The position numbers and the translations under genes were made by a program. DNA of 58,831 nucleotides, the filler included, from Sluysia triapertura (Eukaryota), in NCBI GenBank assembly GCA_046118255.1. It is 4 parts of 4 records of this genome, joined end to end, with 100 filler letters (N's around TTAATTAATTAA, not from the genome) between each part and the next. Parts side by side here need not be neighbours in the genome. Positions count along the whole stretch, not along the records: positions 44,375 to 58,831 come from JBJNIA010258626.1; 3 more parts are not named here. One strand, written 5' to 3'. Below the pieces are notes generated by a model, which made no database searches, was not told the DNA's origin, and worked only from the letters and a program-made list of their open reading frames with translations. Shown here one piece after another: positions 2,723 to 58,831 of this stretch. The first letter of the stretch is position 1. Each line of letters starts with the position of its first letter.

Positions 2723-4891
2723 CTAACTTTCTTTCAAATTACCAAGAGATGGTGCCATATAATACTGATTGGACATCATCATCGTACTAGGTCTTCTTTT
2801 AACACAAACAATTCCAATTATGAGAAATAATGCAATAACCAAGGTGATAACAACCATACTGACTACAATAATCAAATTGAGACCGGATAAAGTTCCACCA
2901 GATTCCAATACATTGATAACTAGTATAGTTCTATTACTACGAGGTGGTCGTCCCATATCTCTGACAATCAATAAAACTTGATGTGTTCCACGAGGTAAAG
3001 GAGATATTCGTGTTATCATTATACCAGTTGTTACATTCAAATAAAACAAATCCTCCTTACTTGGTTCCAAGAAATAACGAACTCTACCAGCATCACCTTC
3101 GTCTACATCAATTGCTTCCAGTTTAATTATTTCTTTTCCAGCACCATATGTTTCTGTAACATTTATGTTAGGTGTTAACAGTTGAGGTGTGATCCATTGT
3201 GGATTATTATCATTCTCGTCCGTTACAATCACATAGACTTTAGAACTAGTAGATAGTTCTGGACTCCCATGATCACGAACTGTTACCAGCAAAGTATAAT
3301 TTGGATTCCTTTCTCGATCAAGCTCATCCAAAGCATAAATATCTCCAGTTAGTTGTATTTTGAAAATGTGATTACCTACTCGACCTCCAGTACTGTTAAC
3401 TACTTCTTTTAAATGAAATGTTATGTATTTATTTTCTCTATTAACATCATTATCAGTAGCACGCAATTTTCCTTCGAGCTTCGTATCCAATTTAGAATTT
3501 TCTCGAATATAAAATGTTAAAGAATCCTCATGAAATATTGGTGGATTATCATTTACGTCGTTTATTGTTACATAAACTACAACCTCATTGCTCTTAATAG
3601 GTTCAAGAATGGAATCTGTAACAACAACAGTAAATTTGTTTCGATTAATTTGTTCTCGATCAAAACTTGAAATGCCCGTCCAAATAACGCCAGTTTTTTC
3701 GTCTATTTCATAAAAATGTGTTTTCGATATTTCTTTGATTTGATAACGAAGATGTGCATTGCCATCTTGATCTGTGGCCATAACTTGAATTAATCGTACA
3801 CCTGGTACTGTATTTTCATTCAAATCTATTCTATATACACTTTCAGAGAATTTCGGTTGATATTCATTTATATCTTGAATGTTTATTTCAATATCTACAC
3901 TGCTACGTTGTGGAGGTTGGCCATGATCTTGACAATTAAATGTGGCTGTAATCCTTTTCTGCTGCTCATAATCAAAACGCATCCGAGTTTGTAATTCATA
4001 AACACTTGAATCTCTTTCGTTCAAAGTTAATTCACGTGCACCACCTCGTAATAAACACTCAACTTGCTTGTTTTTATCTAAATCATCATCTGTTACACGA
4101 AAAGCTAATAATTTCTGTGGTGATTCGTTTTCATTTAACCTAATAATTAACTTACCAGCCATTTCTATCACATTATTCTTTTCGAATACCTGTATCGTTG
4201 GGGCATGATCATTAATATCCTTTACACGTATACTTACAGTAGCATAATTGTTCTGATCAACTTTTAATGAATTTACATCGGTAGCAGTCACACGAAAACT
4301 AAACTGTTGAATTGCTTTTGCAGTTAAACGTTTACGTAATTTTAAATCACCGGTTCTTTCATTTAAATCAAAAGTATGCATAATTAATCGATAATTATTT
4401 GTATGAGTACTAGAAATTTCATACTTAGTTATATTGTATGGTTCATCATCTTTATCAACTGCTTTCAATGATAAAATTACTTGATTAAGTGGAAAATCTT
4501 CATTTATTTCTTTTTCATAATGAGACTTTGTAAAAATAGGTAGATTGTCATTTTGATCTATTACTAAAATACGAATAGTTCGATTCGCTGTTTTTGATCC
4601 ACCATCATAAGCAGTCAAAATTCCCATGTACATTTTCTGTTTTTCATAGTCCAAATCTTTGTGCAAGATCAAATACAAACGGTTAATGTCTATTTTTGAT
4701 AACTGAAATGTATTTGTTCTTTCAGTAAATGTATAACTTGTAATTTGGTTCGGTACAGAAATATCGTCATCACGCGCACTTTCGATAGAAATCATAGTAG
4801 ACATTAAACTATTTTCTTTAATTTTCACTATTTCAACTGGAGTATCAAATTTTGGAGAACAGTAAGATATATCAGGATCAGATATATTGTA
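2723..4891 (-). CDS. Protocadherin (delta/lophotrochozoan-type) large ectodomain+TM exon; N-terminus defective as assembled
   Basis: Six cadherin repeats with Ca-binding motifs (LDYE, DQNDNLP, DINDHAP, FDYE, DINEYQP, FDRE, DVNDNPP, LDRE, DENDNNP), then TM LNLIIVVSMVVITLVIALFLIIGIVCV and KRR. The frame stays open upstream of the annotated GTG as far as a TAA at 4892-4894. The ORF end overlaps a likely splice donor (AA|GTTAGT, ~2727), so cytoplasmic exons probably lie further left; none were identified in the window. Confidence 0.9.
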   Translation of the reverse strand, partial: YNISDPDISYCSPKFDTPVEIVKIKENSLMSTMISIESARDDDISVPNQITSYTFTERTNTFQLSKIDINRLYLILHKDLDYEKQKMYMGILTAYDGGSKTANRTIRILVIDQNDNLPIFTKSHYEKEINEDFPLNQVILSLKAVDKDDEPYNITKYEISSTHTNNYRLIMHTFDLNERTGDLKLRKRLTAKAIQQFSFRVTATDVNSLKVDQNNYATVSIRVKDINDHAPTIQVFEKNNVIEMAGKLIIRLNENESPQKLLAFRVTDDDLDKNKQVECLLRGGARELTLNERDSSVYELQTRMRFDYEQQKRITATFNCQDHGQPPQRSSVDIEINIQDINEYQPKFSESVYRIDLNENTVPGVRLIQVMATDQDGNAHLRYQIKEISKTHFYEIDEKTGVIWTGISSFDREQINRNKFTVVVTDSILEPIKSNEVVVYVTINDVNDNPPIFHEDSLTFYIRENSKLDTKLEGKLRATDNDVNRENKYITFHLKEVVNSTGGRVGNHIFKIQLTGDIYALDELDRERNPNYTLLVTVRDHGSPELSTSSKVYVIVTDENDNNPQWITPQLLTPNINVTETYGAGKEIIKLEAIDVDEGDAGRVRYFLEPSKEDLFYLNVTTGIMITRISPLPRGTHQVLLIVRDMGRPPRSNRTILVINVLESGGTLSGLNLIIVVSMVVITLVIALFLIIGIVCVKRRPSTMMMSNQYYMAPSLGNLKES

Positions 4892-5059: not shown

Positions 5060-5297
5060 AAAGTTATTGTAAAAATTACTACATGATAATTATATTATCA
5101 AACAATAATGACTATATTTATTATATATATTTTAATACGATCTGAATTGTAATAATAATAGTGGTAGTTTCTGATGATTAGGTGTAATGATTATGTTTGT
5201 TTTTTGAATGAGTTTAATAGTTTGTTTAATAATCTGTGTATATGTGAAGTGTTTTTATGTGATAGACTGTGATGAATTTTGTGTGATGAATTCCCTA
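5060..5297 (-). repeat. Probable 5' untranslated start of the protocadherin exon; paralogous copy at 44375-44641
   Basis: Begins on the minus strand with a splice-acceptor-like TTTGTAG|GGAATTC. The copy at 44375-44641 is colinear and diverges a few bases beyond the same AG. Confidence 0.6.
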
Positions 5298-5299
5298 CA

Positions 5300-29099: not shown

Positions 29100-29227
29100 T
29101 TTTGAATTTCTTCTTTTGGATAAACATAACGTCATTTAATCAAATTCTATAGTTGTAAATTATTTTAAAACAAAGTATTTTAATGATATTTTACATAATT
29201 TTAGAGGGTCATCATGGCAACCTAGCA
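29100..29227 (-). mobile_element. 5'-terminal fragment of an LTR of the same family as 57419-58247
   Basis: Minus-strand TGCTAGGTTGCCATGATGACCCTCTAAAATTATGTAAAA versus TGTTAGGTTGCCACCACAACCCTCTAAAATTATGTAAAA at 58247. Confidence 0.7.
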
Positions 29228-31297
29228 AGACCAAGAATGAGAATTAAGAATCTTCTTATTATAGAATATGGATCACGCGAAGATGACTTGAAAGACGCAA
29301 AAGATATCACGGAAATTCGAAAATTCTGGTTGGCATCATTATATGACAAAGTACTTGTAGCCTACCTTCCGGAATTCATTGTTAGAACATTTCAAATACC
29401 ATATGGTTGGTTAGTATCATATTCATCTTTTCATCCATCTAATAGTGCTAAGAAAACTCTCAAAATTTTATATCCATTTTCACCACAATCTACTTCCCTC
29501 ATTTAGATAAGGATTATATACCACCTTTGATAGCACAAGACAAAAGGATACATCGTTTCTACCGCAAGTAATTTAAAATTCGATAGAAATTCAACCTTCT
29601 TATACTACTCCTAATTCTAATCTTCTTTTCAGCATAACACATTCCGCAGAAATTTTTACATAAAAGCATGAAACACATAAATATAACATTGACAGATAGT
29701 GATAGAAATAACAGTGAAACACCTATAAAAAGAAGCAAGAATGAAGATTTTTATGAAGACAAAACGAGTAATAAAGAAGGATCAACATGGAATGTGGAAC
29801 TTGATTCGAATTCAGTAGACTATATTGGCGATGAATCTGAACATAATGTGATTCATTTGGAAGACGATAAATCGGTGTGATTCGAGTAGACTTAGGTGAT
29901 TGTGACAATATTATTAATTTATGTGACTGACTTTATTTTAATGATTAACAAATGCTTAAAATTAATAATCTTTTATGAAAGTTATGTAAATTATATAAAT
30001 GTTTAATAATTAAATGTTAATAATTAAATGTAATATTAAATGTGTAATATTAAATGTTGTAATGTATAAAATGTAATATATAATATGTAATATTTATGTA
30101 AAATTTTAATTTAAGTGTATAGTTGTCATTACTCCTTTTATTATCCTTGTATAATCCTTTTACTATTGCATAAAATTATTATTAAAATATTAAAAAGTAA
30201 AATTATTATTATAAAAATATTATTGAAATTATATTATTAAAAATATTATAAAAATATTATTAGAAAATAACTATTATCATTATTATCAAAAGTACTATTG
30301 CTACTAATTATCATTTTAAAAACTTTAAAACTTTATTAAATCTTTATCAGCAATATAAATCAAAGTTGAATCAATGTCAATGACCCTACGTTTAGTTCTA
30401 ATATAAAACATTGATAAATTGAAAACTACGCGCAAGCATAAATCATCTTTTAAAAGTTTGAATCATTTTTTAATAAAGAAGTTTAAACCATTTTAAAAAT
30501 TTATATCGGTTGAGTTAGAATCACCTTTTGTCACAGTGTCATAAAAAATTGTTGATCTAAATATATTGATGATCGGAAAATATTGTTGTTATAATCGTCA
30601 ATTCTCAAGACAATATCCACAATAAAATAGTTTCATTGACAAGTTTGGATAAATTACATAAACGGAAAAAATTTAAAAAAACAAAAATAATTAGTAATCA
30701 TTAGTTTTCTATATTTGTACATTATCTATTTTAATAAAAGAAAATAAATTGATTACATAAAATCTTCTCGTTAATGTTGTAGTAAACTTTAAACAATTGC
30801 AAAAAACTTAAATTTTATAATTTAAATTAAAATTAAATTATTGCAGGAGTCAATAATAATAGAAAATATTTTTTACTTATCGAATCTCTCATTATAGTTT
30901 TATTCTTTTGTAATTTGATATAATGATTGTATTATAATATTATTTTGCACAATTGGTAACAGTATTTATATATTAGTTAAATTTTATTAAATTATTAAGA
31001 ACGCTCATTATTGCAAATCAATATTCATTATTTAATTTGTATTTACTCGCTTCGATTAATAAAGTTTAGTTTTTTGACAAACACCCCTTATTAATTAATA
31101 ATTATTTCAACCTTTGCAACGTTTATAAACTCTGATATCAGGAAAATAATAAAAATTTATTATTGATAGTAAATTAAAATAATCTTAATTCAAGATCCTT
31201 ATAAATGGATCTCACATAAATTACACAAAATTATAGCCTCGCTATAACAACAGCGGATTTGAATCGTTTACACAGACTGAGCATTCTATTTTAGACC

Positions 31298-34290
31298 CAG
31301 AGGCGGACGAAGGCCTAAGCAACCTAGGCACGTACCTGAGACTCGTAATTTTTGGGCCCGAAAATTAGGTTTTTAATTTTTTACTTTTTATAATTAATTT
31401 TTATTTTTATTTAACAGAAAAACGTGATATTCATAATTATTGATGAAACATATCCAAATAATGCCGAATCGTTGATTGATAAAGTCGATAAGTGTGGACG
31501 AGCATTCCCCTGCTTATGCATCCACACCCGAGAATGTCGATGTGTAAATACGATCAAGCCTCTACTATTCACGTGTTTAAAAAATCAAACGTAGCTAATT
31601 AAAATCAGTGTCTCTTGAACGCATTGCATCTTATGTGAGTTGTGATTGAAAATTGTGCAATTAAGACTTAAGTACCTAGACTTGATTGCAAACAGATTGT
31701 TTTGGATTGTTAATATTTTCTGGAATTCCTAAAATAAAAATTTAAGTTTTTATAAAAGTATTACATTATTTAATTAAATAATATATAATATAAAATACCA
31801 CAAATTGTGATTGTGATATTGAGTAAAAATAAATTTAATTAAAGATCATTTTCTTCTTTCTTTTTAGTACGTGGTCTTTAAAATGAGTTCCTATAAACAT
31901 TTAAGTGGAACTGAAAAAAGAAAACGAAAAGCAGATCGAGACAAAGTGGCAAAACAAATGAAAAGATCGTTGGACAAATTTTTAACCGTAGATGTTGAAC
32001 AATTACAACATTCGTCATCATTTTCACAGATTTCACCTGCTCAAACTCCAGACACATCATTTGTGTCCGAAAGTATTCTGCAAAAAGACCAGCAGGAAAA
32101 TCCAAGCAATTCCGTTTGTGAAGATGAAACAAAAGGAGAAAATATAAATTTAAAATCATCTCAAAATAATGATGTAAACAATATTGCATTATGGCCAGAA
32201 TACTGAACAGATGCCAAAATCGATGCAACGAAGGGTCAAAAAAATCACAAGAAAATTAACTATTGCCTCCTTCTTCAGAACAATTAATAGCGGGAAAACA
32301 TTAAAAGAGATTAGTTGGCTTATACTGAAACCAGAAATGATTGGAAAAATATACTTAAAAAATTGTAAGAGCATGAAAACTCCACTTTAACTCCATTTTA
32401 ATTTTTATAACAAAGTCTAAAATTACCGGACACATTGACACTGAACTAGAAAAACAAATTATAAATAAAAAAATATTAGAGGGAAGTACTTAAACGTGTT
32501 TCATGGCAAGAATGAAGTGCTTTTAGCGAAAATTATGGTAATTATATAGGTGCTTTCGAATATTTATCCGAGTTCGATCCATTTTTGAGGAAACACTTGA
32601 AAACATATGCAAACTACGGCACCGGTACTATAAACCATTTGAAAGTCTACAATATGTGATGAATTTATTTCTATTATATCGAAAGTTTTACAACTCACAA
32701 TAGTGAACGAAATAAAGGAAGCCAAATTTTACTCTCTAATTATTGATTCAACACCTAGTATATGTCACGCAGATCAGCTGACCGTCATTATTCGCTGTGT
32801 TCTTCCAAGTGGTATAAAAGAAAGATTTTTGGGATTTCTATTTATTTTTTCTAATACTGGTGAAAACTTGGAGAAAGTTATTTTAGAATTTTTAAATAAT
32901 ACAGATTTATAGACATCACTATCTGTCGGGACAGAATTATGATAATGAGTTTAATATGTCAGATAAATATAAGGGACTCCAATCCAGAATAAAACAACAT
33001 ATTTTTTCTGCCCATTTTATACTATGCACATTTTAAATTTAAATTCAATTGAAAATATTCTGCGTCGAAAGTTGCATGGAAATGACCATTCTTTTCAATT
33101 TCGTTCAGGAATTATACGCATTTTTCAAGTTCTAAACATTGGTGGAATGCATAACAAAAATTTTGTAAGAGAAAATATTTGAGTATTAAACCTATTTGTG
33201 ACACCAGGTGGTCTGCTCGTTCCGATGCTGTGAAATCTTTAAAGGAAAATTATGAAGAAATTAAACACTTTTACGTCATTTTTCCTCAAACGAAGATGAA
33301 AAACCATTAACAATGTCCGAAGCTGCTGATTTACATAAAAGATTGATACATTAGAGTATGCACTGTTGCTTACTTTATGGGAAAATATTTTAGAAAGAAC
33401 AGATGCTTCAGCAAGACTTTCAACAAAAAGACGAATCCTTAAATACAGCAGTTTTTATATATGATTCATTGATAGATTTCATAAAAAATGTTAGAGATGA
33501 TTTTGACAATTTAGAAAAAGAAGCAGCAAAAGTTAAAGATATTGCATATACTAATGATAAAAAACGGCTGAAAATTCGAAAACTATTTCGTGATGAAATT
33601 CCAGAACATGAAATAAGATTCAGTGGCAAAAACCATTTTAAAGTTAATATTTTTTTGTTAATTATCAACATTAAAAAAAGATCTGAGGGATATAAAATTA
33701 TTAACAATAAATTAAAAACAATTTTTCAAGATGTTAGTGACTCTTCAAAATAGGAATTAAAATGTTATGAACAAGATTTAAACCTAGAAGAACTGAAAAA
33801 TGAAGTAAATAAAATATAATGAAAATAATATTATTGCAACATTCCCTAATTTAAATATAATTCTGAGTACTTATTTAACTCTTCCAACAAGCAATACAAG
33901 CGGTGAAAGATCATTCTCAGTAATAGTCAGAATAAAAAATTTTTAAGATCCACATTAGGCCAACAAATATTAAATAGTTTATCATTACTTGATATAGAAA
34001 AGGTTATTAAATAACTCTATTAATTATGACAAACTAGTTGACGAGTTTGCAGAATTAAAAGTGAGAAAAAAGGCAATCTGGCTATATTTGTTTAAATATT
34101 ATTGTTTGTTTTAATAAATTATGTTTTAATTTTTGTACATGTACATTAATTTTTTCCTTTTTTTCTTGGAATCCGATAATTAAATAGAACTACATACTAC
34201 ATGCTTAAAGACCAAACTACCAAACGCAAAGTATGTGAAAAATAAGCCCGAAATTACAATGTTGCTTAAGTCCACAACTATAGTAACCTC
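31298..34290 (+). mobile_element. Decayed hAT DNA transposon (ZMYM1/DUF4371-like transposase)
   Basis: Left end CAGAGGCGGA.. with subterminal CCTAAGCAAC, mirrored by GTTGCTTAAG at 34261. Right TIR eroded. Confidence 0.8.
31883..34080 (+). pseudogene. hAT transposase pseudogene
   Basis: Motifs in order: SGTEKRKRK; AKFYSLIIDSTP...DQLTVIIRCV...ERFLGF; GQNYDN..NMS.KYKGLQSRIK; CDTRWSAR; FPNL...LTLPTSNTSGERSFS (dimerisation domain). Many stops and frameshifts. Confidence 0.9.
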
Positions 34291-36418: not shown

Positions 36419-37208
36419 TGGACTGACCCGGGATCAAACCCGGGACCTCTTGCTGCGCAGTTCGATGATTAAAAAACATGTATTAATATAATAGTTTTGG
36501 TCTCTTCTTTCTCTTTTTTAGAGAAGGAAGGTAATCTTCTTTCTTCTATTCAGGGACCTTGTAAGACATGGTCGCGGTATGCGTTATTCGAGGACTCCAC
36601 AGCTAGTCATACGCACTGTCGTACCAGGGTCTTGATTTCGGTCTTGTGGAAGTGCCTTGAGAAGCTTGTCATTCTCGGGATCCCATGAACCCAAGGCTCC
36701 AACGACGAATGTATCTAGAGACACCTTGCACTTCAGTTGTTCCTGTAGTTTGCTCTGTAGATCAGAATACTTCGAAAGATTGGTGGTTCGGGCTATTTCG
36801 AAATTTTTCTTCAGGTCCATGGGAGTTTTGACAGTTGCGATGAGGAAGTACCGCGGGCCTGTATGTCGTCGAGTGTCACTGATAATTGGTTTAGGCGAAT
36901 CCTTGATGACCAAGAATCCCTTTTGGGTCATTTTGTCCGCTAGGTAATTAAGGATTTTGTTGTGCCGGAGTGTTCTGGCTGTGCTTGTGTGAAGACATCG
37001 ACGGAGCACGTTTAGAAGGGATTCAGATTCGAGGCCACACCATCGACATGATACTGGCAGATGAAGACGTCAGTTCTGTGGACTGAAATTATGACTAATG
37101 ATGTTGTTCCGGGCCTTGATCATATACATCCATGCACTGAGCTATAATAAAAATTATTATTATTATAGTTAACCATACCAAATGGCACCTTAGGCCTATT
37201 TCGCAACA
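36419..37208 (-). repeat. tRNA-derived dispersed repeat, copy 2, split by a retrotransposon (parts 36419-36467 and 37135-37208)
   Basis: 3' half CATCGAACTGCGCAGCAAGAGGTCCCGGGTTTGATCCCGGGTCAGTCCA and 5' part TAGCTCAGTG plus the shared flank lie on either side of the insertion. Confidence 0.8.
36468..37134 (-). mobile_element. 5'-truncated non-LTR retrotransposon with restriction-like endonuclease (NeSL/R2/Utopia-like)
   Basis: WMYMIKARNN; degenerate CCHC CRWCGLESESLLNVLRRC; RHNKIL; ARTTNLSKYSDL; FVVGALGSWDPEND; terminal SSNNAYRDH; ~80-nt 3' UTR. Confidence 0.85.
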
Positions 37209-41859: not shown

Positions 41860-42620
41860 TAAAATTGCATTGAGCATTTGTGTCAGATATATTATATGGT
41901 TCGATGAATGGTAAATGAGTGTTACAAGTTATTACTACTAAAATATCTAATACGATGAGAACGTCATGCTGGATCAATGGCTATTTCATCATATGGTGAA
42001 GGTTTATCACGCGTCATGGAAAGTTTGGATGATGATGAAAATAACCGACTGCAAACTTATGACGATGAAGCTTTTGTGAATCTCTTAAAAGCTATTTCAA
42101 AAGATGTCAATCTGATTTATTTACCTACAATAGCAAAAAAGCATTACCAAGTTCTTGAATTAAAATTTAGCGAATTGATTAATTGTGGCTGTAAATTAGT
42201 AATAATAGTAGCTCATGCTGTTACTATTAGCTTTTCACTTATGCCTTATTATGATCAATTTATGATCCTAATTATAATACTGTCGCAACATTGTTTTACT
42301 GTGCATTTATCACGTTTATATAAAAGTAAAACGATTGAATGTATTTCATTTATGGACCTTGCCGTGGGTCGAGATAAATTCTTAGTCGATGATAGAGATG
42401 TCATGATGTTTTTATTTAAAAGTCAAATTGAATTGGACACAGAAATCGTTGATTCTGATTCAAAATGTGCCAATTTAAGTGTAGATGATTCATTTTCTAA
42501 TTATATGATTTGGCTCGAATTTGTAAGTTTACAGCTCGACCGCAATTGTTTAAACCACTACCAAAAACTATTATGTCAATGCCTCAAGTCTCTCATTCAC
42601 ATATTGAGTTCCAGTTTCGA
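41860..42620 (+). pseudogene. IPO5: Importin-5 (karyopherin beta-3/RanBP5) processed-pseudogene fragment
   Basis: RHAGSMAISSYGEG, DDENNRLQ, LKFSELINCGCKLV, PYYDQFM and KTIECISFMDLAVGRDKFLVDDRDVMMFLFKSQ match recalled importin-5 HEAT repeats ([47 protein letters not shown]). Internal deletions, no introns, drifts off frame at the 3' end. Confidence 0.8.
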
Positions 42621-44274
42621 AAATACGTACTACAGAAACTTGTCCCTGCTCTTTATATATACAAGAACCAATCCAGATCGTGTCCATGACATTACAAAAT
42701 TTGAACTTCATGAAGTATTTTTATTTTTTTGTGATTTTTGAGTGCCTTTGCATTTTTGAAATTGTTGTGCGTCCAATACATTTTGTCTTAAACTATTTCT
42801 TTTTTTGTTCTTACAATTTTAATCGTTATTTTCAAGTTTTTAATAAAATATATTTAAATTTTAAAATTTTAGATTTTTCCTTAAGTAATTTAATGCGGGA
42901 CCTTAAGTTCTAATTTCTTTGTAATTTAAATTTTAATGTAATATTAAATCAACAAAACTTGATTAATGTTGTGAAATTAAACGTCCCACGACCATTATAG
43001 TGATAGTCAAATTCATGTATCTTTATAGTAATAAAAGTTAAACTTATTTCAAGACTGATAACAATAAGCCGATAAAAAAATTATTTACTGTCTACAAAAT
43101 GTATTATTTATATATACAAAATTTAATATCTGCGTTTTACATATTGGAATATCGTTTACATACTTTTACTTATTAAATATAACATCCTTATTGATATTTA
43201 TAATTTTATTTATAAACGACTAATGAATTAATTTAAAACTATCTAACAATAACTCACCTCTATCAGTTACATAATCCTTCACAGTCAAATCAAACTTTAA
43301 TTTGACAATTTGCACTCCTAAATCTTCCGTGATCCAACTAGTAGCAATTTAATTTGTTTTGATCAAACATCCACATAAATTGATTCCTTGTTGTGTATTA
43401 AATCCTTATTGCTCAATTTATATTAGATTTTTGCATATAATAATCGCAAAACAATAATTATCGGTAGTTAAATCGCAATGTAATGTTAATTATTAAGTAG
43501 ATATAAATTGTTATAAAAATTATTAAAGTTAACTTTAATTCATGTAGTCAAATATTATTACACATTCACATACATTCCATTTAATACGACTTATCGTCTT
43601 ATTAAATCATTTTCGGCATTAATTTAATAATCAAATATTAAATTAAACATTTAATGTGCTTCACCATTAAATCATTTTATATATTCACATTTATAAATTC
43701 TCACCATCATTTTATTAAACCACTTTCAGCATTCTAAATCAAATATTCGATCATAATATTTTATAACTTATTCTTAAACATTCATCAGATATTAATTTGT
43801 AATGATAATATTATTATAATTTACATTTTGCAAGCATTCAATGATTTTTCTAAGGATTCATCAAATCATCAAATCATCAAATCATCAAATATTCATTTTT
43901 ACGATTTCATCAGATTTCTAAAGATCTGTAAGATTCAATCAGTGTAACAATTGTTGCAATAATTTTTCCTTGTGAAATTATAGAAAATTGTGGTTCTTTA
44001 TATAGTGTTTAAATAATTTCTAGGAAGTTAGGAATTCTACTTAATTATTGTGCTTGTCGACAACAGATGCATATTTCGTAGAGTTGGTTTTATGCTTACC
44101 AATTACATTAATTAAATTTGAACATTAATTTCCATCGAAATTCCATCTTAATATTATATAGCAATTATCCAAAGGTAATGAGTTTTGTGGCAAACAAAAT
44201 AATAATAATATATTAATTTATATTGCGCTCATATCTACCGCGAAAGTACTCAAAAGCGCTTAAGGTAAATCATT

Positions 44275-44374: not shown

Positions 44375-44452
44375 TATAAAAGTTATTACTTGATAATCAT
44401 ATTATATAACAATAATGACTATAATTATTATATATATTTTAATACGATCTGC

Positions 44453-44503
<51 letters not shown>

Positions 44504-44641
44504 GCGGTAGTTCATGATAATTATATGTGATGATCATGTTTGTTTTTTGAATGAGTTTAGTAATTTGTTTAATAATTTGTGCACATGTAAAGTGTTTTTA
44601 TGTGATGAAGTGTAATGAATTTTGTGTGATGAATTCCCTAC
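44375..44641 (-). repeat. Paralogous copy of the protocadherin 5' exon start, truncated by the contig end
   Basis: Colinear with 5060-5297 and has the same GTAG|GGAATTCATCACACAAAATTC junction. Confidence 0.65.
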
Positions 44642-47059
44642 ATCTAGAAACGTGGAAATCAAAAAGAATCGAAACGAACGACAAGTAACTCTTAATTTTA
44701 TGCACAATCATGACCTTATAAATTTTGTTTACTTTTTAGGTGCAGAACATGGTCGTACGAAGATCGTATGCAGGATGCTGTTTTTAGCGTTTTACAATAG
44801 CAAAATTAATAACATCTTATGTAATTTTATAAAAATTAATAAATCATTGTCTATCTTTGAGTTGTTTCTAAAAAAATTGATCAACACCCAGTTCTTAAAA
44901 GAAATTATTATAAGTCAATTCAGTATTATATTATATAATTGTCATCAAACTTATCAAGTAAAATTAAAATTTAATTTAATATATTATAAATATACTAAAC
45001 TACAACACTAACTAGACAATCCCAACACGAACATATATAACTGGATTTAATTGTGAATCCATGGCAAAGATTAGAAATAACAATTTTGCTACTTTTATTT
45101 TGTATAATTTTGAAATGCACTGACCGATTTTGAAGACATAAACGATGTCGCATTAAATAAGGATATATTTGAATTTATATTCTCACAAAACGTTATTTTT
45201 AATTTTATTCTAAGTTTTGAAGTCTTAATTCAAAATGTTACATCTCAAAGTATGTCAACCATTTTGAAAGCTCTAAAACTTATTAGTCTTATCTTTATTT
45301 TATAGCTTAAAGTTTTTAATTTAAATTTTTTGATGTTAAACATGTTTTAATCTTTAAGATTTATGAAGGCCTTTATATCGATTTGAAATTAGAATATGTT
45401 GATAAATTGAGTAATACGATTATGTTAATCTTTAAATTTTATAAAATTAATAACGTTAATTCGAATTATATTAATAGTTTTAGAGAGATTGTGTGTTCTT
45501 TGATTTTTATGAGTTACAGGCAATACACCTATTATGTTGAATATTTGCTTTCCATTATTTTCCTTAAACCTTGTTATAAAGTTTTAAAATGCATGTCTCC
45601 TTGTGCAATGGTTTCAGACATCATTAACATATATGTATTAGAGAATGGTAGAATTATAGATCACCTACATGTGGATAATCAGAATGCTGTTGTATATATT
45701 CATAAAGAAATGGTATCAACAAACTTAAATATTATTCTGTGGCAAGGTATTCCTGTCTATTTGGGATCACAACCAGTTTAGAATGTCAAAGTAGTTTAAT
45801 TAATATTATTAATTATATCTATGTGTCAAGAGTGATTAAAAATTCAATTTCGTGGATATTAAATAAATCTATGCTGTATTATTATATTATAAATATTTTC
45901 TTTAACAATATATCTATTACGTGCCTTAAGCACCAATTTTGTAATCATAATCATTTAAAATTTTATACGAATTTTTACATTAGATTAAACAATAGAGTTA
46001 ATTGTAAAACAAATAACAGTAACCATTCATTAATAATCTCTAAAGATAAACAATATAAATTTAATATCAATACAAATATATCCACAATAACAATATTGAC
46101 TTTAAATAATTTTAAATCTTAGGAATTATATTAGGTGACTTATAATTGTGTAGTTTACATCGAATTCGTTAAAGGAATTCGAAAATAATATTTTACACTT
46201 AATCTATGAAAAAATTCAAAGAAAAAACAATTTAAATCATAAAACTTTATGAATTACACTGAGGTTTATTATATTACAATATCAATATACAAGGTTAAAG
46301 TAAAACTATAATAATATACAATAAAAATTTACGAGAATTAACTTAAGATAGTTAATTTAATCGATAGTTTAAAATCTGATTTTACGAATGGAAATATTAA
46401 AACGTTCCAAAAATTTGTTACAAAAAAATTCAAAAGTTTTGGTAGATTTTACGAAGGTACCTGACGGTACTAATCCTAAAATAATAAACTAACGATTCTT
46501 TGTCCAGACAAATTAAAGTCAACTCGAATCTTCAAATTAGTTGCTGAAAAATAATTGCGAAAAATGGTGTGTGTGTATGTTCTGATTGAAAATATATTGT
46601 TTAACGAGTTGACCTTGACTTTGGTCAAACAAAAATTAAGAAAAAAATTTTAATTAATTTAATTTGAAAGTAATACATTTAATATGAAAATATAATTAAT
46701 GAAAATAATTTTATTAATTAAAAATAAGCTAACATTTTTAATCAATATCAAAATTTTGTTATGAACTTGTCAGAATTGCGTGCAATAAAATTGTTTAAAA
46801 ATAATTATTAAATCATAATTGTGTTGCATATAAAATCATAAATCACAAAATCAATATCGGTCTGTTAAGTTACAAGTGTTAATTGTAACAAAAGTAATAT
46901 TTAATTATTTTAAAATTAATTCAAAAAAGGAACCTTCCACATATGAATTGTTTGAATAAATAAAAAATTATTAATATGACTCCAGATAACCATTATTCTA
47001 TAAATAAAGCTACAAAAATAGTAGTAAGACACAATTCAGACAATAGTCATAAACAACGC

Positions 47060-49800: not shown

Positions 49801-50070
49801 TTACTCATTTGAATGAAAAGTGTAACTGCTTTGTATATTTTCCGTTTAAATGAATTTGTACTATTATATGTTTATCTTCACTTGGTAAAAAGTCTGAACA
49901 AATTGTAGAGGAATGTATTTTTTAAAGGAAAATTTTACTGGCAAAATTTTTAGTTCCAATTTTGTTTACGATGTCCATGCAATACAAGTAATTTTTATTG
50001 TTAAGTTTAACGTTTTCAGCATAAGAGGAGAAGACTAAAATCTTACTCAAAATATTAATTAGTTTTTGGA

Positions 50071-50407
50071 GCTAGATCTTAAAAAGACTAGCGAAATATA
50101 ATTTTAAACTTAAAAATTCGTCGAAACACTTTAATCGTATTTATATTATAAATGAACAACTTTTGTTAATTAAGTTTATAACTATTGTAATTATTAAGTT
50201 TAGTTAAAAGTTGATTTTTAATAAGGTAACTTTGTTTTTCAACACTAGACCTTAAAAAAGCTTGTGAAATTTCTAAATTCATATATTGTTTTTATACTAG
50301 ACCTTAAAAAGGCTAGTGAGATTTCTAAAATAATACTGTTTTTATACTAAACCCTAAAAAGGCTAGTGATATTTATTTTTCTGAACTGTACCTTAAAAAG
50401 GCTAGTG
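50071..50407 (-). repeat. Array of five stem-loops (~40-52 bp period for four of them)
   Basis: CACTAG-CC-TTTTTAA-GG-T-CTAGT(A/G) and variants at 50071, 50243, 50295, 50345 and 50384. Confidence 0.85.
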
Positions 50408-50659
50408 AAACGTAATAAAAATATAATTTAATTTAAAGTGACGACATAAAATTTTAATCTCTAAGGAGCTAACGCACACAATTTAAGTTTAGCTTAGGTT
50501 AAATTTGACTATTTTAAATCCTAATAAAACGTCTCCAGAATTGGTATAAAGCGTGAATATTAGGCGAATCCGACCTTCAGATATTTTGCAAGTATAAGTT
50601 TTTAAGTCTATTTTTTGATAAAATTCGTGCATTAGGTTGTGGAAATTTAACTACCTTAA

Positions 50660-51040
50660 CCATATTCTACTTGTTCCTCTGCCCATACGCATTTAGTAGG
50701 TTTAGTTTTTAATCCATCAATTTGTAATCAACTTGTAATTTTTTATGTCGGCAACATGTGCGTCAAAATTCTTTGAAAATATTACAAACGATTACATTCT
50801 TACAACCCGAAAGGACGAAATTCATACAGCACCGAAATGTTGCAGGTGCTCCTGTTAGACCGAAGGGAATTTTTTTGCATTCGTATAATTGATCTCAACA
50901 AGGGAATGCAGTTTTGTGATTATCTTTTTTAGCTATTTCTATCTGCCATTAACAACTCTGTAAATCTAATGTAGTAAAGAATGCTGCGTTTCCTAATTTA
51001 TCTAACATCTCGTCAATTCTTGGTAAGGGAAAACATCTCT
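50660..51040 (-). pseudogene. Ty3/gypsy reverse transcriptase fragment
   Basis: DVFPLPRIDEMLDKLGNAAFFTTLDLQSC*WQI...KTAF...IPFGLTGAPATFR, YxDD deleted, then GLKTKPTKCVWAEEQVEY. Confidence 0.92.
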
Positions 51041-51299
51041 TCTACTAATTTCGCTTAATTCTCTTACTTAATTATCTTACCTTCACAAATGTTACAAATA
51101 GAATCCGCTATTCCTATATCTAATTTTTTCTGATTACCTTCGGATGTGATAAACATTATTGAACCTGTTAACAAACTATTGGTTCTTCCTGGATTAATAT
51201 ATTCTGCCCTACTTAATAACCAAAACGGTTCATCTACAATAATATCGTTATCATCTATTGTACGATTCGTATAGCTACCCATTAATTTCGCCTTATCAA

Positions 51300-51530
51300 A
51301 ATCTAAGGTAATTCCTTTAAGATGTGATAACACGTCCATACCTAAAATCATATCTTCGAGACAGTATCTCATAACACTTAATCTAACTTCAAATTTATTT
51401 TTTCCTAATTCGCAAAAGGCTTTCATTACTTCTACTATTTTTATCGCATCTCCTCGCTTGTTAAGAAAGATTTGTTCCTGTGTCAGTTAATGCTGCAATA
51501 ACTCGACCATTAATTCTAATTTTAACCATC
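51300..51530 (-). pseudogene. Retroviral-type aspartic protease
   Basis: VKIRINGRVIAALTDTGTNLS (DTG at 51476-51484) and DMILGMDVL. Confidence 0.9.
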
Positions 51531-51739
51531 GCACCATAATAATTTACATTCTTTGTTGGTGAAGTTGGAAGAATTGGATATAAAAAATTTTTTATTGTTT
51601 TTAGGTTTTTCTTTATTTTCTTTATATCTTCTGTGTTTCCTTTCTTAATTTCGTTATTTCGATTCGAATCTATGTTTTGTAATAATATGTTTTCATTAAT
51701 GTTTGTACGTTCCTTTTTTAATGCGTTTATTTGAGAATT

Positions 51740-53300
51740 TGCGTGGTGATGAAGTAAATATTTAGATAAGAAATGAAAACATCCTATAATATAAATTCCT
51801 ATTAAACCAGAAAAGCAAAAGAAACTATCTCACATTTGTTTTAGTGTATTTTAAGCAGCTTTCTTAAAATGATCAGGCCCTAATAATAGTTCAAAATTAA
51901 CTTGACCGTCTTTTCTACAATAGCTTTATCTGTTAAAACCTTAGATTGCTTAATTGGGAATAAAATTGCATGTCATTAGTATAAATACCAGAATTAGGGA
52001 TCTTTTTAGTTGCTAAGAATTTTAATTTACCTCTTAATTCGGTTAAACCTATTACTTCTGGCATCTTAACCTGACTTCTATGCGGTAATGAAATCCATAA
52101 ATTATCATCTATCCTGTACTCGGGTGCCATGACATTTGAGCACTACGTGGTTTTTATTTTAATTTTATCATTTAGTAATAATACTCGTGTTACCGGTTCT
52201 AAATAGGTTTGTAATTTTCCATAAATCCGATTCTTGTATTTAAACTTCGACTTTCTTATATTTTTCTTATATTTATAAGTATATAATACTTCACCCATTA
52301 GTCTACAAAATACGCCTTCTTCTAAAGGTAAAAGTGGTGCCACTAGATTAGGATTAGTAATCGCGATTGCTAACATAGTTCATAAAATTTCCTTATTTAG
52401 TTGACAATCTCTTGTTATCATTGCATAAACTTTTTCTAGCGACATTAGTCCTAAAAAATAGTAAAAGTCAATCTTATTGTTAAATTATGTGTTTAATTTT
52501 AAATTCTTAGGGTCACCTCCCTTTTTTGCTTGTGGAATTATATGTTCAGACAAATAAATACTTTGATAGTTAGTCTCAGTTACTTCTTTACCACATCTAA
52601 TGATTGAATTTTTTGACATAAATATTAAACCGTCTTCTTCCTTATTTGCCATAAGAATTGTAGGAGTTTCTACCTCTTTCAATTTTTTTCTTTCTAAATT
52701 TTCCTTATGTATTTGTTTCTTACTTAATTCCTCAATGAGTAATTCATGATCATTTTGAAATACGAATTCTGATACAAGATTAAACTTAATTTGTTTTAGA
52801 AATATCAAAGGACACTGAAACCTATTTAATTCGCAAAGTAATATTGATTCTATTTTACAAAAACGTACCTGATATATTCTACAGACCCCTTTCACATGTT
52901 CCATCTAATAATACATTTCCTGCTGTCCTTACATTATAAATAATCTTTGCATTATCTTTTATTTCCAACTTATCCCCTTTATTTAAATTTATATAAACGG
53001 TTTCGAATGTATCCATAAAGTTATTGGGTGATATTTGAAAAGGTTTTAGAACGTTTGAATATCAATAATCGATGAGTGACTTTGATGTCCACAATACCAT
53101 ATTACGACTGATCATTTAAACGAATATTAAATTACACATTCAGTATCTTACTATCCTTAAATATTACTCTATTGGGTCATGACTCCGGCCAATCCTCTCT
53201 CTGGAGCAATGAAAATTTTTTTATCTATTTAAGGTCTACTACAATTCCATTTGTCTTATTTATGCCGAACATAGCAAGCAAAATAATTACGAATAACATA
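51740..53300 (-). pseudogene. Envelope glycoprotein of chuvirus-G / herpesvirus gB-like (class III) type
   Basis: Signal-like MLFVIILLAMFGINKTNG; FSLL; WYCGHQSHSSII; AGNVLLDGTCE; CGKEVTETNYQSIYL; GVFCRLMGEVLYTYK; YLEPVTRVL; CSNVMAPEYRIDDNLW; SGIYT; TM SGLIGIYII; FLSKYLLH. Order and spacing match recalled chuvirus-like glycoprotein motifs. Confidence 0.8.
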
Positions 53301-54049
53301 TTATTAGTAGAATTACCTAATCTAGGCAGTATATATTATTCAATAGATTATTATTTTCTAATATATTTGTGGACCAATTGAGAGTTTCATTAGAGTTTAA
53401 TTTGTCGCTTTCTTTAATTATATTTTTCTAATCACCTTTGTTTTCAATCCATAACTTAAGTTTTTTGTCTATAAAATTTAATATTTGATATATCTTCTCC
53501 TTAGTAAGAAGTTTCTCTTTATCACATTGGAACAATGTGTAAGTAATGATGATTTTGAGCTTTTCTCTATTTAATCCAGTATTAATTTGTTTACCTATTA
53601 TCAACTTATATTGCCCCGTGTCTGTATAATCACTTATATCCTTATCTCTATATTTTTCTTCTAATTATTGCGTTAATTGAGTAATTGCACTTCTTGTCAA
53701 ATACTTCTTGATAATACTTGTGAAAATTATCAAACTTATCCGACAATAGTGCATAAATTAAACTTGTTGTATCTATTTCAATTTTATCGCTAAATCTATA
53801 GTATTCCTATTAACATAATTAGGAGTTATAAATTGATCACTGCATTCCTCTTTTCTGGGTCTGCCTGGTCTTCTCTTGAGAGTATTTGTTTCCTTATTTA
53901 ATGTCTCTATATGTGGATTGTCATTTAAATCTATTATCTGGTTGTTCATTATCTGTATCAGTATTAATATCCACATTAATTTGTATCCATTTGTATTCAT
54001 TTGTATTCACATTAACTTTATTAGGAGTAGAACAATTAAATGGTATATC

Positions 54050-54280
54050 ATAAACAATAGTAGCTTTTAATATATCATCATGAATTCCAAGAGGTTAACC
54101 ATAATCATTTAAAAAATAATCGGGCACCAGATTTCTATCATTAAAATATAAGTTGACAACCGTAGTATTAGAGTCATTCATTTTAATTAAATCTATAATT
54201 TCTTTGAATCTCGTAGTGATAGGCAATTCCATTACTACATTTATTAAATCATTAATTAATATTTTAATATTCAATAAGGT
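54050..54280 (-). pseudogene. Ubiquitin-like domain within the polyprotein
   Basis: LNIKILIND..VVMELPITTRFKEIIDLIK...NLYFNDRNLVPDYFLNDYG*PLGIHDDILKATIV parallels ubiquitin [29 protein letters not shown]. Confidence 0.5.
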
Positions 54281-55124
54281 TGTTGGTGTTTCATTTCGTT
54301 CCATGTGTGCAATTTTCTTTAATATTTTTCTTGCTTTAACTTTATGATAATTTTCTTCTCTACTTAACGCAACTAAAATAGACTTAATTTTATGGCCATC
54401 TGGAAGACTTAAGTCGGACTTATATAAATTTTCAAAATTAATTCGATGTCTTCCTTATTTAAACATGAAAGAAATGCATTAACTTCGTTATTGCAGATAA
54501 TTCTAACGTGTTTGCTTTATTCTCCTCATTGACAGAGGTTCATTTTCGCTTTCTAGAATAACTTCATTGCTTGTATTCGAATTACTAATTTCACTTTTAT
54601 TTGAACCTTCATATTCACTTATACTTGATTGTTGAATTTGTTTCGAGATATTCGAGATATCCAATGTTAAACTCGAATTGTCACTATTGTCATCTATGAT
54701 TTTTATTATTTACTTCGCTTGCGTTTTTCTCCTTCTCTAACTCCTTATCTTTCAACTCTTGTTTTCTTTTTAATATTTAAGATAATGCTCGTACATATAA
54801 TTTATAAATGCATCCTCTTCTTTTTGTCTATTATATCTATCTTCATTTTCATCATCATCGTCACCGTCTAATTTTATTCTAGAAAACTCTTTAATAAATC
54901 CATCTTTATGTCTCCTATAGTTTCTTCTTCTGAATCATAATCTTCGTGCGTTTCTTCATCATAATTATTGTAACTATTTCGCATTTTATTATATTATAAT
55001 TTATTTGTTCCTTACTCTTATTCTTAACGTCATTAAACCTTACTTTTCTATCTGAGTTTGTCTCTCTCGAATAATCTTGCATTTTAGTAATATTTTGATT
55101 AAAAGTTTCAGCTCTTAATTTCTT

Positions 55125-56068
55125 ACAATTTCTAGCGTAATGACCTTGCTTATCACAGTTATTACATATTACATTCTCTTCTGTTTGTTTGAGTCTTATG
55201 GTTATTAGCAGGACTTCTTTTTCTATTCACCAGCCGAACTTGGCCAACGCGATGCAGGTCTTTGTTCGTAACCTTGAGGTTTTGTTATTACTTTTAAAAC
55301 CGAAATTATTATTAATTCTAAAAGCCTGAGAGATATTTTCTCAAAAATTATTTCTAACTCCTCATCGTACCTTAGTGCATTATTTGTTCTGAAATTATTT
55401 CCTCTACTAAAATTATTACTTCTGTAATTAGAATTATTTCCTCCAAAATTAGGATTAGTAGTATTATAACTATTTATTCTACAGTCCAAATTATTATCAT
55501 ATCCAGCATTAAAATTAGAGTTCTTACGTTCTTAAAATTTCTTTTTTTATAATTATCTTGAGATTTCTCGATGCCCCTTAACATATGCTCTTAATTCTGA
55601 GCGTAGACCACTTTTTAACTTATCAATTAAAAGATTCTCCTTTTATCATCAACTTTAGCTCTAAAGACTTTAATGCGCATGCAAGTTCATAAACTGTTTC
55701 CTTACATTTCCTTACATAAACTGTTTTCTTCGTACATTGAGCATCTTAATGTAATATTTACCTATATCGCCGAGATCTATTTCTTCAGTGAAGGCATTTA
55801 CAAACTCTTGCCAATTTTGCTTATAAATTTTATCAATTTCCTTATAAATCTGGATTGCAACTCCAGTTAAGTAGTTTTGTATACGCTTAATCTTTTCAAT
55901 TTCTATCCAGCCATTTGCCTCTGTAATACTATCATACTCAAAAAGAAAATCACAGAGTTCTTCCTCTGCGCCATAAAATTTTCTTAAATCGGGGAATGCC
56001 ATTGTAAGCCTAATATCCCTAGCAAATTGAGACATATAGTCTCTAAATTCTTCTATTGGTAAAGACAT
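55125..56068 (-). pseudogene. Gag (capsid plus CCHC zinc knuckle)
   Basis: KFYGAEEELCDFLFEYD...ANGW...YLTGVA...WQEFVNAF capsid signature; KSGLRSELR; CNNCDKQGHYARNC at 55125-55166. Confidence 0.9.
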
Positions 56069-57395
56069 CTTATTTGTTTGTTTAGAGTGATTTCTTCTAG
56101 GCTTTTTCTTATTCTTAGTAAATTCAATTAAACTTCGTGTATCAATTCTGAAGACTTAAAAAGTTAATATTCAAATATCAATATTTAATAACTTGAATAA
56201 TAGTTCAATAGGTACAAATGTAAATCGGAATCAAATATTTTAAACTTAAATCAAGAAAACTTAATAAAATTCAATTAAACTTGACAATTACAAATCCAAA
56301 TCTTATAAATCTCAAGAAAATATCAAAAACCTTATCAATTACTTATCAAACAATGTAAAGACAATTCAAAATAATACCATAACTCAATAAAATCGTAATT
56401 ATAAACTTAACTTTAGTCAAAATTAGGGGTAAAACTTACTTAAAACTTATGTAAAATTCAAATAATCAAATGAAACTTAACAAATTCTATGAAAACTTAA
56501 TGAAATTATAAAATAACTTAAAATAACTGTTAAACTTATACAACTTAATGTCATACTTAAGTAAAACGTACAAAACTTATGAAATTAAGGCATATACTTA
56601 AGAAACGTATAAATTCTTACTTAAACTTATACAAAAACTTATAAAAATCAGCTCTAAATCATCACATACTTAAGGGGTAATCATAATAATAAAAACTTAA
56701 TAAAAACTTAAATACTTAATAAATACTTAATAAAAACTTAACTTAATTATCAAAATATTCGATAAAACGTAGACTTATAATTTAAAAATTCAAAATATAA
56801 CACCTAAAATTTTAAAATTCACAATTAAAAAGCTTAAATTTAATGGTAACTTGACTTAATCGCAAAATATACAATATAACTTACACTTATAGCTTAAAAA
56901 TGCAAAATTACACACTTAAACTTAATTTTAACTTATTATATATCTAAATAATTCAAACTTAGAACCTTAAATTCTTATCAAAACAACTTTAAAAACAACT
57001 TATACGAGATTAAACTTAAAACTCAAATAATAACGTATTATAACTTATATCGTCGAAAATCAAACTTAATTTTACTCTTAAAAGTGTTCAAACTTAAAAA
57101 TTATCAAGAGTTCAATGCTTAATTTTAATTTCAACTCGTTTAAAAACCTTATAATCAATGAAACACAAACTTATAAACTTAAATTCTATGAATTACTAGT
57201 CAGAATTACTTAAAAGCAACGGATAAATACAAAAACTTGTCAAAATTCAAATTTTAATATCGAATTATAAAGTAAATCATCAAAACTTAAAAATTCAATG
57301 TTCTGTAAATACAATCAAACTTAAAAAATTCAATGCAAAAATGATAAAAACGTCGTTAAAACTCAAAAATTTAACGTATGTCTTAACTTATGTAA

Positions 57396-57413
57396 GTCCC
57401 AATTCGGGCGCCA
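57396..57413 (-). promoter_or_regulatory. Primer-binding site, tRNA-Lys(UUU)-like
   Basis: TGGCGCCCGAATTGGGAC matches the canonical tRNA-Lys3 PBS TGGCGCCCGAACAGGGAC at 16/18 and lies 5 nt inside the LTR terminal CA. Confidence 0.85.
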
Positions 57414-57418
57414 AATTT

Positions 57419-58247
57419 TGCTGTGGTTTTAACTCTTAACCTGCAGCAAAATAAAATTGAGCAGGGTCCAGTTACACTAAAAGTCTTATGTCGTAAAGAT
57501 GTAACTAAAACAAGTTAATTCCAATGCTAAAAACTTAATCTATTAATTAAATTAGAAAGTCTCTTTAATTACTTTAATTATCAACTTATCCAACTAATAT
57601 AATTAAAATAAGTAAACTAATTTAGCTATTTAACAGAAAAGAAAAGAGTTATGAAACCAAGTTATAAAAATATTTTTAAATTTATAATCAAAACCCTATG
57701 GATCTTTGATTTTATTTTTATAAATGATGTGAATTAAAAAACGTTTTGATAGTGCCTTAAATTGAATTTACCTGGATTTTACATTTCGATTCTTTAATTT
57801 GAAACTTCCTTATAAAAATAAAGCTTACCAAATACTAATTAAAAATAGCTATAATAAATTCCGGGGATTGTTCGTCACAAGTAAACAGATCGAATCCAAC
57901 GAATAAACCGCGTCAATGAGTATTGTAAATCAATAGTGTTAAAAGACTAAATAAATTTCCATTGCGTTAATATGGCGTTAGCAAAAATTAACAATATCTT
58001 GACGAATTATAATGAGAATAACTTGTGATGAAACTTGAACTGATGCTAGTTTATATACTAGTCATCAGCCAATAGAAATCGGTGGAACATTTTAGAAGCG
58101 TCTATTCTATTTTTAGAAGCTTATTTTCTTTTTTGGAAAATAATAGTTTGCTAGTTATTTGGAAGCTTTTAAATATGTTTTTAAATGGTTTTAAAATTTT
58201 TTAATGATTTTTACATAATTTTAGAGGGTTGTGGTGGCAACCTAACA
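57419..58247 (-). mobile_element. 5' LTR (~830 bp, TG...CA)
   Basis: Starts TGTTAG (boundary supported by the second copy ending at 29227) and ends CAGCA before the PBS. Contains ATTGG (CCAAT) and TATATAAA at ~58050-58073. Confidence 0.75.
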
Positions 58248-58728
58248 TACCCAATGATTTTAATTATCAATTGCATTTTCGTTACGCAATAGAAATTACT
58301 AAAAATTAGACAATAACTTAAATGTATTTTATAAAATTTTATTCAAATAAAAATTCTTAAAATAAATAAGTAACAAGTATGTTAAATTTCCTTGTACTGA
58401 TAATGAGAATTCAAATTTTAAAGTTCGTTTGTTATCGTTTAAAAAAATGAACAGAGAAATCAAATGTAATATCTTTCCCGTTGATAAATTTTTTAAAACC
58501 CAAAAAACTTTAAAATACAGCTCTTTAGAATCACCTTAATCAATTTACAAAAACTTTCAAATTAATAGTAAAAGTAAAGCGTTTTTAGACGTGTGAGAAT
58601 AAGGTCATTTGACCTTTAAACATAAGAATAATTATTGTGATGAATTAGTAATTAATAACATTAGACACAAAACTTATAAATAACTATGATAAATAATAAT
58701 ACTTTTATTTCAAATAAAAACATAAGTA

Positions 58729-58831
58729 CACCTATCCCCCGATTTACACGGTACTCGTTTTACACGTTTTCGTTTTACACGGTTTTCCAAATAAGTTTTT
58801 TTTACGTTTTTCTCAGGAACGTATCTACCGT
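58729..58831. mobile_element. pogo/mariner-type MITE truncated by the window end
   Basis: TA|CACCTATCCCCCGATTTACACGG followed by repeated (T)TTTACACG subterminal motifs. Confidence 0.55.

Follow-up and report, generated by a model that had tools for sequence, protein, structure and literature searches.

The envelope gene at positions 51740 to 53300 of the window (the whole stretch of DNA analysed, 58,831 nucleotides with filler) very probably belongs to a dead Ty3/gypsy LTR retrotransposon, old and truncated at its 3' end, with the GAG-ENV-POL arrangement; it would be an 'HSV/gB-type errantivirus' as Chary and Hayashi use the term, most like those of Schmidtea. A primer-binding site, gag, env, protease and reverse transcriptase (RT) follow one another in this order on one strand, with env between gag and pol. 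This arrangement, in which env and protease share a reading frame, is the most distinctive feature of the copy and was absent from the initial annotation of this DNA.

Anatomy and decay of the element

All parts of the element described here lie on the minus strand. A tRNA primer-binding site of Lys(UUU) type is assigned to 57396..57413; over its first 12 nt it is perfectly complementary to the tRNA end in the Lys_UUU entry of supplement 1 of PMC13524379. The match is the only one in the window, and 0 of 100 shuffles had one; an 18-nt pattern for the site was composed after the site had been seen. The 5' LTR is expected just above this site, where its limits could not be drawn, and a search of the window for a repeat of any stretch of 56000-58831, as an LTR pair would give, was negative. 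From the primer-binding site down to the first ATG of gag there is probably a long (~1.3 kb) AT-rich 5' leader (56069..57395), in which no ORF reaches 100 aa.

The capsid-like N-terminal part of gag, at 55653..56068, was recognised by tblastn matches to the N-termini of database relatives of the window env, which are given P-numbers here (P0037, E 2.8e-7; P0003, 1.1e-4; P0028, 1.3e-4). It is followed at 55119..55169 by a gag CCHC zinc knuckle (Pfam zf-CCHC, E 5.8e-4), whose 20.3 bits are slightly below the cut-off of 20.8. A decayed linker of ~590 codons (53330..55100) then separates gag from env; it gave one weak tblastn match (E 0.54) and no Pfam family. The linker carries an RPGRPR motif at ~53851-53877, which we take to be AT-hook-like, and a similar motif stands ahead of env in 3 of 12 relatives.

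By its hydropathy peaks, env has a first membrane segment, an ectodomain and a C-terminal anchor. The hydrophobic segment that opens env (53237..53293, Kyte-Doolittle peak 1.85) aligns with the corresponding segment of P0005 and P0004 and is probably an internal signal sequence. The ectodomain, of the class III (chuvirus-G/gB) type as judged by PF24664, occupies 51972..53236 and is broken, its pieces lying in three frames. The membrane-proximal region and transmembrane anchor (51767..51913) are shortened; the anchor peak (2.01) falls at 51767-51823, and just after it the copy has a 29-residue gap relative to P0002 and P0003. The cytoplasmic tail runs in frame into an aspartic protease (51088..51766, DTG at 51484), with no stop codon from the anchor motif to the DTG. 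The second half of the protease sits in another frame, and the protease piece gave no direct Pfam match, but tblastn matches to P0005 and P0039 span the env-protease junction. A Ty3/gypsy-type RT remnant at 50662..51059 (RVT_1, E 8.5e-12) is 59% identical to both P0004 and P0005. The element ends at this remnant or slightly below it (~50520 by eye). Just below the break there is a family of ~50-nt repeats (five copies) at 50058-50413, with a tandem array at 50244-50374.

The copy is an old, dead, 3'-truncated pseudogene. Its env survives as five segments that between them show at least four shifts of frame and nine stop codons, the catalytic motif YxDD is absent from all three frames of the RT, and neither RNase H nor integrase has a match in the window; on these grounds we regard the copy as dead. 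Sequence has also been lost within it, the N-terminal half of the ectodomain being ~30-40 codons shorter than in relatives and ~160 residues being missing between protease and RT. Chary and Hayashi include elements with intact ORFs and a full RT and integrase; beside these the window has a decayed copy, incapable of any polyprotein, cleavage or fusion step. A single reading frame is established in intact relatives; in the window copy the gag-env stretch is too decayed to read.

Class and fold of the envelope

The initial annotation had listed envelope motifs in the order of Jingchuvirales glycoproteins. The six literal ones have a single occurrence each in the window, all on the minus strand, CGHQSH at 53093, DGTCE at 52905, GEVLY at 52295, EPVTRVL at 52199, SGIYT at 51992 and GLIGI at 51808, so that the order holds from 53093 to 51808 across three frames. 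Where the copy has kept its sequence, the spacing of these landmarks is that of intact relatives: CG to GxC measures 64 codons (63-64 in 6/6 relatives), TNY to GEV 93 codons (94 in 6/6) and GEV to GIY 102 codons (104-106 in 4/6, the pattern having mis-hit in the other two). The distance from GxC to TNY, at 109 codons, is below the 136-150 of intact relatives. The motifs by themselves are not specific to a lineage, since stand-alone members of the family carry GEV-like (43/47) and GIY-like (42/47) motifs as well.

Family membership was examined with profiles. The longest single-frame piece of env, referred to here as the core frame (51936-52904, 323 codons, stops read as X), matches PF24664 (Pfam Monjiviricetes_fusion) with E 1.9e-17 and 63 bits against a curated cut-off of 27. 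A profile built from 35 database relatives only scored 165 bits on the core frame and gave small matches, in the correct order, on the flanking frames. When the region was base-shuffled 200 times (1200 frames, of which 709 scored), the top score was 2.8 bits, and the env signal is thus not a product of chance. Identity of the ectodomain to its best relatives is 35-41%, and five of eight near-invariant cysteine columns are kept in the core, three being lost. None of the three frames matched an F-type Pfam family at E up to 1, and no F protein stood among the PDB fold rows shown for the intact relative or the leading rows for the window fragment; a baculovirus F-type env is thus not supported.

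The fold was approached through an intact relative and through the window's own fragment. P0007, which is 35% identical to the window core in the alignment, was modelled with a mean pLDDT of 75. Against the PDB (Foldseek) the rows shown for this model were all herpesvirus gB, with a best E of 2.7e-14; against viral models the best matches were chu-like and related G proteins, headed by the G of Tacheng tick virus 4 (E 4e-41, 22% identity). Searching PDB sequences with the family profile likewise gave gB in 32 of 32 matches, over the central helix, at a best E of 0.01, and phmmer of the window core against the same sequences gave no match at E up to 10. The 323-residue fragment of the window was modelled with a pLDDT of 79. 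Foldseek found no match for it at E 0.001 or better; the leading rows were gB (best E 9.3e-3), thogotovirus GP and GP64. With VIA four gB chains led (Z 5.1 to 3.7), the best match having an rmsd of 11.2 over 193 residues, which is weak to middling on the scale of that tool. The Foldseek comparison proposed in the initial annotation thus came out clearly for the intact relative, which folds like gB, and weakly, with a leaning to class III, for the window fragment. As the window's own fold match is weak, the class III assignment is drawn from homology to intact relatives with a clear fold. The N-terminal half of the env probably belongs to class III as well, judging from sequence alone.

The initial annotation had proposed a chuvirus-G/gB (class III) envelope rather than a baculovirus F-like one, and this reading is borne out by the PF24664 match together with the gB and chuvirus-G folds of the relative. 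It had staked that proposal on a class III profile or structure match, and the core frame supplies one at the E-value given above. Herpesvirus gB itself shares its fold with P0007 at ~10-12% identity, with a weak sequence signal. The G proteins of Jingchuvirales/Monjiviricetes share the PF24664 family, the predicted fold and the CGxxSH, GEV and GxY motifs; they differ in being stand-alone proteins of ~650 residues, and the best fold match among them is ~22% identical to P0007.

Relatives, descent and proposed workings

Homologue searches with a word index were insensitive and returned two matches in each of two runs. A phmmer search of 1.84 billion representatives returned 98 matches, all of which were scanned with Pfam; PF24664 was present in 94 of them. 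Env was joined in one chain to a protease, an RT or a zinc knuckle in 13 of the 98, and these chains made up nine of the top 12 matches. P0005 and P0028 contain a CCHC knuckle, env, protease, RT, RNase H and integrase in one stop-free chain. Nematode elements with a single continuous gag-env-pro-pol frame were reportedly described by Sacco et al. in 2022. P0034 proved to be a false positive with HYR-like repeats and was excluded from the tree.

Several further features were seen in these relatives. Residues 9-70 of P0007, upstream of env, gave a weak Bcl-2 family match (E 0.00096, below the cut-off), and the N-terminus of P0002 looks Bcl-2-like by eye; planarian Burro retroelements bear a Bcl-2-like domain. 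P0004, P0005 and P0019 have long C-terminal extensions past the integrase with more hydrophobic segments, which suggests that the polyprotein closes with a second membrane protein. At least two aspartic-protease-like domains follow env in P0002, P0004, P0006, P0008, P0009 and P0013, and P0009 has four DTG-type motifs there.

A maximum-likelihood tree was built from 65 rows; left out were P0034 and 34 of the other 99 sequences, which covered fewer than 200 profile positions. The tree is unrooted and without named viruses, and the window row fills 44% of its columns. An 11-row clade (100/98) contains the window and is itself nested in one of 18 rows (100/99), to which all 11 polyproteins kept belong; the remaining 47 rows, outside the 18-row clade, are stand-alone glycoproteins and fragments. 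The window branch is long (0.88), and its exact place within the clade is not fixed by the tree. Pairwise identities agree with this grouping: they are 25-37% to the 18-row clade (67-191 bits, 17 rows) against 20-32% to the other 47 rows (43-74 bits). A YQE[STR] motif 24 residues before the CG motif occurs in seven of the ten sequences that share the 11-row clade with the window and in none of the 47 outside rows; it is not literally present in the window. A second motif test failed to separate the clade (5/18 inside, 4/47 outside). Among the window and five relatives, env and RT identities co-vary (Spearman 0.70; 11 of 720 Mantel permutations as high), which fits a long joint descent of env and pol, six taxa being few for such a comparison.

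On virus-retroelement exchange the tree shows one thing only, that no sampled lineage is the source of a recent capture of this env. The initial annotation had held that the case bears on the direction of that exchange; this found no support, as a tree without a root or named viruses gives no direction, and the env lies deep in a retroelement clade. The kinship of these envelopes with the chuvirus glycoprotein family is detectable by plain sequence search. It is nonetheless a long shot that the flatworm-type gag-env-pol lineage, with its Env internal to one Gag-Env-Pol polyprotein, forms a deep branch of that family and that the viral fusogen is perhaps derived from retrotransposons. Were this true, so that a rooted tree nested the Jingchuvirales and related G proteins inside the retroelement envelopes, negative-strand RNA viruses would have obtained their class III fusogen from retrotransposons.

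If this gypsy lineage had taken up a chuvirus-type G recently and on its own, apart from the published flatworm elements, that would account for the long and unplaced branch of the window. It would also sit well with the statement in PMC13524379 that GAG-ENV-POL elements are not monophyletic, and with a host phylum that the protocadherin-like ORF described below does not pin down. We consider it very unlikely, since the stand-alone glycoproteins score at most 74 bits with the window, against up to 191 for the polyproteins, and even the best viral fold match shares only 22% identity with P0007; the long branch, for its part, would be expected from pseudogene decay.

Similarly, a chuvirus-like glycoprotein EVE might have integrated independently and come by chance to lie inside a gypsy element, a situation described in insects, where Dezordi et al. 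2023 found gypsy fragments beside Jingchuvirales glycoprotein EVEs (PMC10084718). The Pfam family does take its name from the Monjiviricetes, and chu-like G proteins lead the viral fold matches. This origin is nevertheless largely refuted, and we rate it as highly improbable: the reading frame of the env tail continues into the protease, the nearest relatives have the same env-protease fusion, and the env is nested among polyproteins with env and RT distances that co-vary.

The Ty3/gypsy carrier named in the initial annotation is upheld, in that the RT is closest to Ty3 among solved structures and the relatives' domains are of gypsy type. The RT remnant had three matches in the PDB, of which the best two were Ty3 (4ol8, E 6.7e-17; next, 3.6e-16). 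The window pol keeps only protease and RT, and the order protease, RT, RNase H and integrase is complete in P0004, P0005, P0019 and P0028. A BEL/Pao (Anakin-like) carrier or an F-type env is barely credible: mosquito Pao elements do bear a chuvirus-type G (PMC7642597) and CGMHSH, the form given in the initial annotation, is present in a mosquito BEL row of the PMC13524379 sheet, but the best solved RT relative is Ty3, the relatives show RVT_1, RT_RNaseH, Integrase_H2C2 and rve in gypsy order with no Pao-specific Pfam family among the domains listed for them, and the env searches gave no F-type family at E up to 1 and gB for 32 of 32 PDB sequence matches.

Since the relatives show gag-env-pol as a single polyprotein, an unusual, membrane-threaded making of Gag, Env and Pol is implied. 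In the living element the three would be translated as one polyprotein. The hydrophobic segment after Gag and the linker may serve as an internal signal, threading the ectodomain into the ER, and the anchor after the ectodomain would bring the chain back to the cytosol; protease, RT, RNase H and integrase would thus be carried on the Env tail. The parts could then be released from one another by signal peptidase together with the protease of the element. Membrane fusion by class III fusogens is established for herpes gB, and by analogy Env trimers on budded particles might bring about fusion of the particles with neighbouring or germ-line cells. Hydrophobic peaks mark the start of env in eight of the 11 relatives in which this part is present, and the end of env in all 12 relatives. 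P0013 has two separate peaks after the ectodomain and P0028 has two before it, so that the one-in, one-out topology is not cleanly matched. No discussion of the membrane topology of the polyprotein was found in the available part of PMC13524379, in a search that most subscription papers lay outside. For entry, gB requires partner glycoproteins (PMC13524379).

Known elements, host and surroundings

Envelopes of gB type on Ty3/gypsy elements across animals have been described by Chary and Hayashi (eLife 2026, PMC13524379), and that paper reports the GAG-ENV-POL arrangement for gB-type elements of Nematoda, Bryozoa and Platyhelminthes. Phrase searches of the literature for this gene order found the eLife paper alone, most subscription papers not being searchable. 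The surprise implied by the initial annotation, a gB-type env on a Ty3/gypsy carrier, had therefore already been published, flatworms and bryozoans included. The copy confirms gB-type envelopes on Ty3/gypsy elements in gag-env-pol order; as a dead copy of an element kind already in print it is one data point and sets out no new principle.

PMC13524379 lists nine flatworm elements, six of them from Schmidtea mediterranea. These six, Smed_errantivirus_1-6 (Platyhelminthes_C1a), likewise have a Ty3/gypsy carrier and a gB-type env between gag and pol; they differ in that the window copy is broken and truncated and bears a primer-binding site of Lys(UUU) type, the tRNA type of all six being entered as 'none'. 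A hand-picked stretch of 41 residues from the window core is identical to Smed_errantivirus_2 at 21 of 41 positions without gaps, by hand count. In the 230-row sheet of the same paper five of the six matches to YQES/YQET are Schmidtea rows; the 124 insect rows were covered by this motif search only. The nematode non-canonical ERVs and bryozoan GAG-ENV-POL elements of that source likewise have a gB-type env before a Ty3/gypsy pol, but their env rows differ from the window by eye and are without the YQES-type motif in the sheet as accessible. By eye the window core resembles the Schmidtea rows far more than the nematode or bryozoan rows examined, and one clade motif agrees with this; the link to the Schmidtea elements is provisional.

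In insects, Pao elements are among the carriers of a chuvirus-type G (Dezordi et al. 2020, PMC7642597), and the accessible text of PMC12440569 cites insect chuvirus-type G on retroelements and goes no further. The mosquito Anakin elements (PMC7642597) are also retrotransposons with a chuvirus-type glycoprotein; their carrier is BEL/Pao, in contrast to the Ty3/gypsy-like RT of the window.

Elsewhere in the window, an intact ORF of 722 codons at 2723-4891 (-) encodes six cadherin repeats, and a membrane segment can be made out by eye. From its sequence it is probably a protocadherin-like host exon; its matches were mostly protocadherins, with none above 30% identity among the 120 matches listed. 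Protocadherins are not known from arthropods or nematodes. On the strength of this ORF and the Schmidtea-like env, a flatworm host is likely. If the host lay outside flatworms, nematodes and bryozoans, the known range of the gene order would widen.

The window is AT-rich (GC 16-34% per kb), and ARAGORN found no tRNA in it. Nine N runs (assembly gaps) lie between 12056 and 44374 and two dispersed two-copy repeats were seen (5070-5299 / 44377-44642 and 29189-29251 / 58209-58271), none of them inside the element. A 397-codon ORF at 22507-23700 (-) contains a 36-nt tandem repeat (5.4 copies) and has no meaningful Pfam match, and a 260-codon ORF at 41959-42741 (+) has none. The 161-codon ORF at 36584-37069 (-) has no Pfam match; by eye it resembles the end of a non-LTR retrotransposon that carries the endonuclease. 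A decayed transposase at 31868-33900 (+) gave a weak DUF4371 match (E 0.0065) and, by its motifs, is presumably hAT-like. Finally, a short ORF at 21292-21627 (+) appears leucine-rich-repeat-like by eye.
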